From NCBI RefSeq assembly GCF_013315695.1, contig NZ_CP054353.1: a DNA stretch of 64,000 bases; one strand, written 5' to 3'. Positions 24,488 through 25,906 of this stretch are shown here, piece by piece. The stretch is from Escherichia coli. GTDB taxonomy: Bacteria; Pseudomonadota; Gammaproteobacteria; Enterobacterales; Enterobacteriaceae. Every line of letters begins with the position of its first letter. Positions within the stretch are counted from its first letter, which is position 1. The notes under the pieces are model-generated. The model ran no database searches. It was given only the letters and a program-made list of their open reading frames with translations, and was not told where the DNA came from. The position numbers and the translations under genes were made by a program.

Positions 24488-24799
24488 TTATTCGGGGAAT
24501 AACGCCCTGATATTTCCGGCCATCTGATTGGTTATCTGTGCGGTTGGTACTGGCTGTGACACGGGGCGTTCTGTCCTGGTTTGTGTCACGGATAACGCCT
24601 CATCGTCAGCCCATGCAGCCAGTCGGTGAGCCTCTGCTGGATTCATTTTCAGAAGTGCCAGCCCGGCCAGAAAAGCCACGCGTTGGCCGCTTTTGCGGGC
24701 TTCTGGTGTAAGGCTGTCCAGCCAGGCGCATGCTTCGCTTTCGTTCTTGACGGCCGCAGGCTTCAGATAGAAACTTATCCGTCTGGTTGGTGTCGTCAT
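24488..24799 (-). CDS. parR: ParR-like centromere-binding protein (type II partition adaptor)
   Basis: ORF track 24488..24934. Start set to ATG 24799 (MTTPTRRISFYLKPAAV...), 5 nt after the parM stop. RISFYLKP...LDSLTPEARKSGQRVAFLAGLALLKMNP parallels R1 ParR (TIAFKLNP...LDSIPQGERSRLNRAALTAGLALYRQDP). Confidence 0.75.
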   Translation of the reverse strand: MTTPTRRISFYLKPAAVKNESEACAWLDSLTPEARKSGQRVAFLAGLALLKMNPAEAHRLAAWADDEALSVTQTRTERPVSQPVPTAQITNQMAGNIRALFPE

Positions 24800-24803
24800 T
24801 GGT

Positions 24804-25763
24804 TTACTCCTTGTCCATTGCGTACAGCCCATTAACCAGAGCAAACTGTGGCACCCCGTCCGCGATGAAAGTCGCATTAACTCCGCAGGCTTCGCGGATA
24901 GCGGGTGCCACAATCTCCGCCCCTCCACCGACAACCATCACCCGCCCATAACCCGAAAAACCCGCCAGCGCGCGGATCACGCGTTGTTTCAGTGTTTCTT
25001 CCTTTTCACGAATAACCGCCATCAGGCTGTCGTAATGCGCGTCATTGTGGATGTGCTGGCGCAGCCAGGCTTCATCATGGCGATGTTCGATAATGGTATT
25101 GGCGATATGGTGGCTGGTACGCATACCGTTAGTGGCCATCACCGACAGTACGGCATCGGCCATCAGAGAAACGCCTACGTGTGGATCGCAAAACACCTGG
25201 CTGATACCTGCCAGTTGTCCCTGAACCTTTGCCACATCCAGCGTGGTTCCGCCCAAATCCACAATCAGCAGTGATTCAAACGGACTCATGTCAGCCAGTG
25301 CCTTAAAGCCAGCCGGAATGGATTCAGGCATAACCCGTACGTTACGGATAGTGAATGCTTCGCCGTTCTGGTACTCCACCGGGCGCATAACGTTCGCTTT
25401 TTTGCGGTTGATGTTGGCCATGTCCGGCTGTGCGTTTGTGTCGAAATACTCGCTCAGTGGCAGGGTGACAACCACATCCACCTCCTGTGGCGTGATGCCT
25501 GATTTGACCAGCGCGTGATGAATGGCAATGACATTCACATCGCTGTACTGGTATTGCGTGTCGGTCGTCTGGACAAAGCGATCGCTGACCGGATCAAAAC
25601 CATAGCGCACGCCATCAAGCATGTAGTTCGCGGGCTGCGTGCCACCGAACGGCGCAGACCATTCCGACTTGAAGCTGTTCGGGCTGATGGCGTTGCGGCG
25701 TTCGCCGTTCTCAGTCCATGCCAGCTTGATGTTGGTGGAGCCGTCGTCGATACAAATTTTCAT
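24804..25763 (-). CDS. parM: ParM/StbA-family actin-like segregation ATPase
   Basis: ORF track, 319 aa. Collinear by eye with plasmid R1 ParM along its whole length (IDDGSTNIKL, ISPNSFK, YSDVNV, MPESIPAG, DLGGTTLD, VMVVGGGAE, LVNGLY). Confidence 0.9.
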   Translation of the reverse strand: MKICIDDGSTNIKLAWTENGERRNAISPNSFKSEWSAPFGGTQPANYMLDGVRYGFDPVSDRFVQTTDTQYQYSDVNVIAIHHALVKSGITPQEVDVVVTLPLSEYFDTNAQPDMANINRKKANVMRPVEYQNGEAFTIRNVRVMPESIPAGFKALADMSPFESLLIVDLGGTTLDVAKVQGQLAGISQVFCDPHVGVSLMADAVLSVMATNGMRTSHHIANTIIEHRHDEAWLRQHIHNDAHYDSLMAVIREKEETLKQRVIRALAGFSGYGRVMVVGGGAEIVAPAIREACGVNATFIADGVPQFALVNGLYAMDKE

Positions 25764-25792
25764 GTCGCTTTTCCTTATGTTGATTAATTAAT

Positions 25793-25906
25793 CGTTTACA
25801 GGATTTTTAAATCCCGTTTTTGCCTGTTTTGTGCGCACTTCATATATCGCGGCACGTTTTTTGCTCATTTACGGGATTTGTGAATCCCGTTTCTGTCTGT
25901 TTTTTG
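25793..25906 (-). repeat. parC: parC-like region: two 41-bp direct repeats, each containing a palindrome
   Basis: 25793..25833 (core GGATTTTTAAATCC) and 25866..25906 (core GGGATTTGTGAATCCC) are 34/41 identical and 73 bp apart. The first lies in the parM promoter region and the second inside the 3' end of gpA. Confidence 0.55.

Follow-up and report, generated by a model that had tools for sequence, protein, structure and literature searches.

The 64,000-nt stretch of Escherichia coli DNA analysed here (assembly GCF_013315695.1, contig NZ_CP054353.1; hereafter the window) contains an integrated prophage of the P2 family that carries, directly behind its replication gene gpA, a partition cassette of the kind known from plasmid R1: parM, parR, and—upstream of parM—two dyad repeats that form a candidate centromere, parC. 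Such systems are usually regarded as the mark of plasmids and phage-plasmids. In the present case, an orthodox ParMRC belongs to the conserved, strongly selected backbone of a family of integrating phages found in approximately 24% of complete E. coli genomes. On balance, the module probably serves the active partition or positioning of the phage circle while this is extrachromosomal, by a type II ParM/ParR/parC mechanism; we infer this biological role, and the binding of ParR to the dyads, from the features described below.

The parM gene (24804..25763, minus strand) encodes a 319-aa actin-fold segregation ATPase of the R1 StbA/ParM type, as identified through Pfam, PDB, and PHROGs. Residues 1–157 match the Pfam domain StbA_N (PF06406, E 1.8e-82) and residues 159–316 the ParM C-terminal domain (PF21523, E 1e-68), residues 2–316 align to the R1 ParM structure (PDB 1mwk, E 1.3e-92), and the protein also matches phrog_691, 'partition protein' (1e-90). 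These matches agree with an earlier note on this DNA, made from the letters alone, which had described the product as collinear with R1 ParM over its full length; the family searches proposed in that note matched both ParM domains and the ParR family. All motifs are intact relative to R1 ParM, namely phosphate-1 (IDDGSTNIK), the catalytic motif (VMPESIPAG), phosphate-2 (DLGGTTLD), and adenosine (GGGAE), and the nucleotide-binding and hydrolysis motifs are invariant in eight aligned prophage ParMs. With a dN/dS of 0.03–0.12, parM is under strong purifying selection, and the Hafnia ortholog is still 94.6% identical at the ParM level, compared with 59.5% for gpA, the essential gene next to it.

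The second gene, parR (24488..24799, minus strand), starts 4 nt past the parM stop codon, with a GGAG 9 nt upstream of its ATG. Its product is a predicted centromere-binding adaptor, an assignment based on PF10784, phrog_2515, and an alignment of alleles: residues 6–76 match Pfam Plasmid_stab_B (PF10784, the StbB/ParR family; E 1e-23), and the protein matches phrog_2515 (8e-57). The ParR identity given in the earlier note therefore holds, whereas the length of 104 aa does not, being 103 aa plus the stop. Among alleles, the N-terminal 60 residues (an RRISFYLKP strand and two helices), which constitute the DNA-binding part, are nearly invariant; a linker at around residues 62–90 is hypervariable; and the C-terminal tail, NIRALFPE, is again nearly invariant. 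This tail aligns with the C-terminal ...NAMKLIN of R1 StbB, and the pattern N-[AI]-x-x-[LM]-[FI]-[PN] recurs in R1 StbB and in most other ParRs of the alignment. The C-terminal peptide of R1 ParR is reportedly the one that binds ParM (PDB 4A62). In a low-confidence AlphaFold2 monomer (predicted local distance difference test, pLDDT, 56), helices span residues 20–29, 32–52, and 54–61, residues 62–87 are disordered, and a C-terminal helix covers 88–100; the helices are placed as expected for a ribbon-helix-helix protein, with the strand not formed.

With a dN/dS of 0.2–0.5, parR evolves faster than parM, and the change is patterned along the protein. ParR alleles fall to 51% identity while the neighbouring ParM remains at least 98% identical (proteins P0001–P0083), and in many genomes nucleotide homology breaks within parR at around codon 18 (window position 24745). 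Together, the allele divergence and the break suggest intragenic recombination in parR and a freely evolving linker.

The candidate parC consists of two 42-nt repeats on the minus strand, 83% identical (35/42) and 73 bp apart from start to start. The proximal repeat (25792..25833) contains the dyad ACGGGATTTAAAAATCCTGT (25798–25817), with its centre approximately 45 nt upstream of the parM ATG, and the distal repeat (25865..25906) contains the dyad ACGGGATTCACAAATCCCGT (25871–25890), located in the last gpA codons. Each dyad is 20 nt long and of the form CGGG-N10-CC(C/T)G. The direct repeats around palindromes that the earlier note had described upstream of parM are thus present; the distal one is, however, not intergenic, since it overlaps the last 22 codons of the gpA open reading frame (ORF; stop codon at 25840–25842). 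In the 64-kb window, the pattern CGGGATTN4AATCCYG occurs only at these two sites, plus one match with two mismatches elsewhere, and none of 100 shuffles reached the observed match count.

In 77 related sequences, the outer arms of the dyads (CGGGA ... ATCCCG) are almost invariant and the central 4–6 bp variable, with a spacing between dyads of 73 bp in 71 of the 77 and of 72 bp in one. The arms are also kept in Hafnia, though the flanks diverge, and the gpA stop codon there falls inside the distal dyad. Plesiomonas, whose ParM is 63% identical and whose ParR shares an identical RRISFYL strand, possesses two 26-nt repeats 72 bp apart with cores CGGG-N10-CCCG and then CGGG-N10-CCCA; the first of these likewise lies at the gpA stop. 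Because the gpA stop falls in or at a repeat in both Hafnia and Plesiomonas, the site is conserved as DNA and not as protein. Serratia and Enterobacter carry inverted repeats of different sequence at the same position, and the N-terminal region of their ParR is also more diverged. Invariant arms, fixed spacing, and a core shared across genera are consistent with a protein-binding site read via its outer half-sites—a plausible candidate parC for a genuine R1/StbAB-type parM-parR pair. Reading the dyads as terminators was considered and rejected: the hairpins are weak or absent (−5.1 kcal/mol, z −0.55, for the proximal site on the plus strand; a stem of just 4 bp in Plesiomonas), and arm mismatches are not compensated in the population.

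The earlier note had located the cassette directly after gpA, where P2 carries orf91/tin/old, and the order of P2 genes after gene A agrees with this. The comparative data show, however, that the cassette is not variable cargo: parMR is conserved beside gpA, and the variable slot starts only after parR. The order gpA-parM-parR-[variable genes]-portal is found in E. coli (with several different ParR alleles), Escherichia albertii, Salmonella, Cronobacter, Hafnia, Plesiomonas, and Serratia; Enterobacter differs in having two small ORFs between gpA and parM. Accordingly, the survey of gpA adjacency that had been proposed found parMR next to gpA in every related locus examined (a scan of genome contigs for exact peptide patterns gave three near-identical loci only, and the distant relatives came from a protein search). 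The gpA type is present in 1441 genomes and the cassette in 1307. Homology to the window ends right past the parR stop, and the slot that follows (22956..24487, between parR and the portal/cos side) lies outside the partition module. It holds a DUF3800 gene (23450–24256, plus strand; phrog_3732; PADLOC candidate PDC-M04A, 2.6e-35) that is common to only one of 80 IMG/VR loci with near-identical ParM, the other loci holding different genes there, and is therefore probably hotspot cargo. Its GC content of 38%–45% differs from the backbone-like 53%–57% of parMR. The parMR pair is conserved, and PADLOC returned no match for ParM or ParR; it is thus not a defence system of the P2 hotspot, and behaves like a part of the conserved backbone that closes the replication operon.

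These observations bear on the proposal that the cassette is a passenger or relic, which would act on other replicons through plasmid incompatibility or serve the host as a 'fitness factor', without any role in the phage, and whose repeats would be antisense terminators or gpA-related sites. Its position matches the dispensable tin/old slot of P2, the paper on Citrobacter phage phiSM lists the gene merely as a 'fitness' cargo gene, and both dyads precede T-rich tracts on the plus strand, one of them called terminator-like. Set against this are the strong purifying selection on parM, a synteny that spans genera while the adjacent slot turns over, the backbone-like GC content, the lack of PADLOC matches, the weakness of the dyad hairpins, and the uncompensated arm mismatches, all of which make a passenger role very unlikely.

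Expression of the module appears to be tied to replication. The parM leader (25764..25791, minus strand) contains a ribosome-binding site, AAGGAAAAGCGACATG, and a conserved block, ATTAATCAACA, both read from the sequence and from comparison with Hafnia; the block is present in Plesiomonas too. parM starts 76 nt downstream of gpA on the same strand, and a terminator scan found none between the two genes, so parMR is probably expressed with the replication genes and would be co-transcribed with gpA. Transcription reading through from the early operon is no less likely than initiation at a promoter of its own. The parMR transcript probably ends at 24257..24440, where GC-rich hairpins lie between the convergent parR and DUF3800 genes; the terminator-like sites there (24276–24257 on the minus and 24421–24440 on the plus strand) are consensus matches only.

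Since the prophage is almost always integrated and hence segregated by the chromosome, the module would matter only on the extrachromosomal circle—after infection and before integration, or after excision during gpA-driven replication. Under the favoured reading of partition or positioning of that circle, parM and parR, as the last genes of a long early (replication) operon, would be expressed whenever the replication genes are. ParR dimers would bind the two CGGG-N10-CC(C/T)G dyads, 73 bp or seven helical turns apart, and the conserved C-terminal tail of ParR would capture the ends of ParM filaments, whose growth would then drive phage DNA circles apart. The most likely benefit would be the distribution of circles to both halves of a still-dividing cell, stabilising a transient episome in the manner of srpMRC, the type II module of the SXT/R391 integrative and conjugative elements (ICEs).

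Several points weigh against this reading. Lytic infection by P2-type phages kills the cell within one generation, and the value of partition there is doubtful; 1453 of 1455 places of the cassette are chromosomal. Only two candidate sites are present, compared with ten iterons in R1, leaving segrosome cooperativity unproven. Across 66 distinct P88-type sequences, 35%–40% of dyad positions vary somewhere, as do 36%–45% of positions in the flanks; the dyads overall are no less polymorphic than their surroundings, with constraint confined to the arms, and the arm-versus-centre pattern is the only informative signal of dyad conservation within the population. ParR has no sequence match in PDB and does not have a segment of approximately 12 residues that plasmid ParRs possess. 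An auto-regulated promoter, which the earlier note had placed at the repeats, was not recovered: no sigma-70 consensus promoter was detected in 24200–26200, leaving autoregulation by ParR unsupported, and inspection of the parC region by eye gave only a weak TTTAAA-17-ATTAAT. The literature searched contains no functional study of parMR of this lineage.

The same arrangement could serve the lytic cycle instead. The filament and its adaptor may position or spread replicating circles for rolling-circle replication or packaging, rather than for inheritance at division, much as AlpAC does in the Corynebacterium glutamicum prophage CGP3; P2-type phages package from monomeric circles. In keeping with this, parMR ends the replication operon with no terminator past gpA and is kept with gpA across genera, AlpAC is induced early and needed for efficient phage DNA replication, and purifying selection of such strength points to a function exercised in each cycle of infection. 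The proteins are, however, orthodox partition proteins of the R1 type and not members of the divergent Alp family, and P2 and most Peduoviridae replicate without parMR. A lytic organiser is therefore rather unlikely, if a serious candidate.

Among 5426 complete E. coli genomes, 1307 (approximately 24%) carry the cassette, at 1453 chromosomal places and two on plasmids, and its 1.55 kb are at least 90% identical in all but four matching records. Fourteen phage records contain it as well; all are P88-type (genus Xuanwuvirus), among them inducible P88 (NC_026014) and phiSM. Thus, the presence of the cassette in an integrated prophage, which the earlier note had presented as noteworthy, is confirmed but is less surprising than it seemed, given its frequency and its existing annotation in P88, RefSeq, and PHROGs. 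One record is of a different kind: pZ1323PEC0009-2 (NZ_CP148288.1), from an E. coli isolate from a cat, was deposited as a circular plasmid and comprises a complete P88-like genome of 34,461 bp, running from the integrase to dam, hok, and ogr.

That circle, together with the fact that the nearest phage homologue outside the group belongs to the phage-plasmid D6 (ParM 48% identical), favours the idea of a facultative plasmid prophage, which would spend many generations as a low-copy episome through gpA replication and ParMRC partition. Conversely, a phage-sized circle was found for only one of 72,556 PLSDB plasmids, the other matches being replicons of 0.2–1.4 Mb or a linear fragment carrying the prophage; the integrase is kept in all elements examined; phiSM lysogens are integrated at pdxB, according to the phiSM paper; and spontaneous induction could explain the single circular record. 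With its integrase and its almost exclusively chromosomal places, the element is not a phage-plasmid of the P1/D6/N15/SSU5 kind, and a long-lived facultative plasmid state is improbable. Two further records were rejected as episomes: 'Escherichia phage 520873' is a chromosomal prophage excised by annotation, with a yecA flank and IS100, and NZ_CP049283.1 is a linear fragment ridden with insertion sequences (IS).

The ParM lineage is largely confined to P2-like phages. A tblastn search over 50,697 phage records recovered this type of ParM from P88-type phages and D6 alone. Genuine plasmid ParMs reach at most 52% identity among the 5000 best-scoring PLSDB matches, and no plasmid ParR is detectable by tblastn. 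The next-closest ParMs (54%–63% identity) are those of P2-like prophages of a second Hafnia lineage, Plesiomonas, Serratia, and Enterobacter, all located between gpA and the portal gene, either directly after gpA or one or two small ORFs away. In a neighbour-joining tree, P88-type, second-lineage Hafnia, and Plesiomonas ParMs form one clade and those of Serratia and Enterobacter another, each with 200/200 bootstrap support; the union of the latter with the P88-type clade has only approximately 50% support. This pattern indicates that the genes were acquired long ago, in one or two events, and have since remained in P2-like phages. Beyond these phages, a Dickeya chromosome (CM001975.1) carries a 49% identical ParM, with a ParR, in an ICE beside TraG_N, TraU, and an integrase—a further integrated element with an R1-type partition module. 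A ParM that shares 98% identity with the E. coli phage protein is encoded on a 226-kb contig assigned to Vagococcus sp. WN89Y, an assembly probably contaminated with enterobacterial DNA.

The prophage itself is of the P2 family, as seen from Pfam matches in the window to Phage_cap_P2, GPO, gpP-type terminase, portal, GPD, sheath, and Phage_GPA; contractile-tail genes, gpA, an integrase, and a host flank are all present, as in an integrated P2-like (Peduoviridae) phage. The gpA gene (25840..28713, minus strand; Phage_GPA, 4.6e-129) encodes the rolling-circle replication endonuclease, a 957-aa ORF that the annotation pipeline PGAP calls at 948 aa in strains A24 and H22; the range in this lineage is 913–957 aa, compared with 761 aa in P2. 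Identity to P2 gpA is 31% over residues 107–761, and relative to P2 gpA there is an extra C-terminal region of approximately 200 aa, the last codons of which overlap the distal dyad. A tyrosine integrase (32586..33710, plus strand; Int_N 2e-28, Phage_integrase 4e-20), with a start that is probably internal, is followed by host btuC (34306–35286; FecCD, 1e-86), btuE, and btuD, a stretch with 97.8% identity to the H22 chromosome of E. coli, and then by other core genes of the species. In this region, the chromosomes of E. coli H22 and A24 are colinear with the window, and the junction upholds the earlier statement that the element is chromosomally integrated and has its own integrase.

The window is identical to no strain in the collections examined. 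By BLAST, the stretch from approximately 23148 to 44754 shares 98% identity with the E. coli strains A24 and H22, and the early region within it (replication, parMR, and integrase genes, ~23148–34100) is 94%–98% identical to P88-type elements, namely phage 520873, the 34-kb plasmid record, and the A24 and H22 prophages. The structural genes (~1–22955), by contrast, are at most approximately 74% identical to A24, H22, P88, or any phage record, with the breakpoint near the cos/portal end. The prophage is therefore a mosaic, and the low identity of its structural genes rules out that it is the prophage of A24. Elsewhere, two loci (L109 and L110) join the same gpA-parMR module to a different, HP1-like structural module. 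In the prophage of A24 (at 2757173–2760570 of the record), an inserted hxsABCD (His-Xaa-Ser radical-SAM) cluster adjoins a shortened gpD-like gene and constitutes a second cargo site of the phage family. The host flank of the window includes approximately 5 kb (~44755–49889) that is extra relative to E. coli H22 and A24, encoding a Na/sulfate-type symporter, a 2-hydroxyacid dehydrogenase, a short-chain dehydrogenase, and an IS1 transposase.

That both genes encode partition proteins is already known from annotation: RefSeq names them 'plasmid segregation protein ParM' and 'plasmid partitioning/stability family protein', each has its own family in PHROGs, and the GenBank entry of D6 carries the remark 'similar to phage P88 StbA protein'. 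The P88 paper makes no mention of parMR. What is new is the backbone status of the pair, the strong selection on parM, the phage-specific clade, and the conserved two-dyad site. A more far-reaching view, which is tentative and somewhat doubtful, is that P2-like temperate phages of Enterobacterales possess actin-like segregation machinery of their own, of old descent, whose minimal centromere of two dyads is embedded in the end of the replication gene, and which gives them a regulated episomal phase. If true, this would mean at a minimum that the circle undergoes active partition, either in the interval from infection to integration or once excised, and at a maximum that these are facultative phage-plasmids using gpA rolling-circle replication plus ParMRC; it would also reveal a common, overlooked state of temperate phage DNA, for a prophage in around one quarter of complete E. 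coli genomes. Should the module act on a transient circle, inheritance or positioning of phage genomes before integration or after excision would become testable, the idea behind srpMRC would extend to tailed phages, and a minimal two-site centromere would be available for study. P88 and phiSM are usable for such tests, as laboratory work has already propagated both and lysogenised or engineered them. If the module is dispensable, it is a well-annotated plasmid-like gene pair and an ordinary finding.

One of the closest known systems is the ParMRC of R1 and of related IncF and IncI/K plasmids. The order parC-parM-parR is the same, ParM is colinear over its full length at 47%–52% identity, and ParR belongs to the same Pfam family, with the same N-terminal pattern and C-terminal tail motif. 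The differences lie in the carrier—a low-copy plasmid for R1, a chromosomally integrated phage here—and in the centromere, which in R1 comprises two sets of five 11-bp iterons flanking a strong promoter and in the prophage two candidate 20-bp dyads 73 bp apart. ParR is also shorter in the prophage (103 aa, compared with 116–140 aa), and the prophage ParM falls in a prophage-specific clade. StbA/StbB of the P1-like phage-plasmid D6 represents the only other phage record with this type of ParM; D6, however, is a 91-kb extrachromosomal plasmid prophage that needs partition, whereas the present element integrates.

The likeness to srpMRC is functional and contextual, and is drawn from papers. srpMRC is a type II module on a normally integrated element that replicates by rolling circle when excised; experiments have shown that it is expressed only with the excision functions and stabilises the excised ICE. 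Its carrier is conjugative and not a virus, and SrpM and SrpR are distant from R1 ParM and ParR—SrpR being without a recognisable domain—whereas the phage proteins are orthodox R1-type proteins. The earlier note had named srpMRC as the closest precedent, yet it is not the sole one, as AlpAC/alpS of CGP3 likewise pairs an actin-like filament protein with a co-transcribed adaptor in an integrated prophage. There, the adaptor binds DNA upstream of its own operon and AlpAC links circular prophage DNA to the filaments. The resemblance is by description only: AlpC is a divergent actin-like protein from a phage of a Gram-positive host, and its demonstrated role is in efficient phage DNA replication and not in partition.

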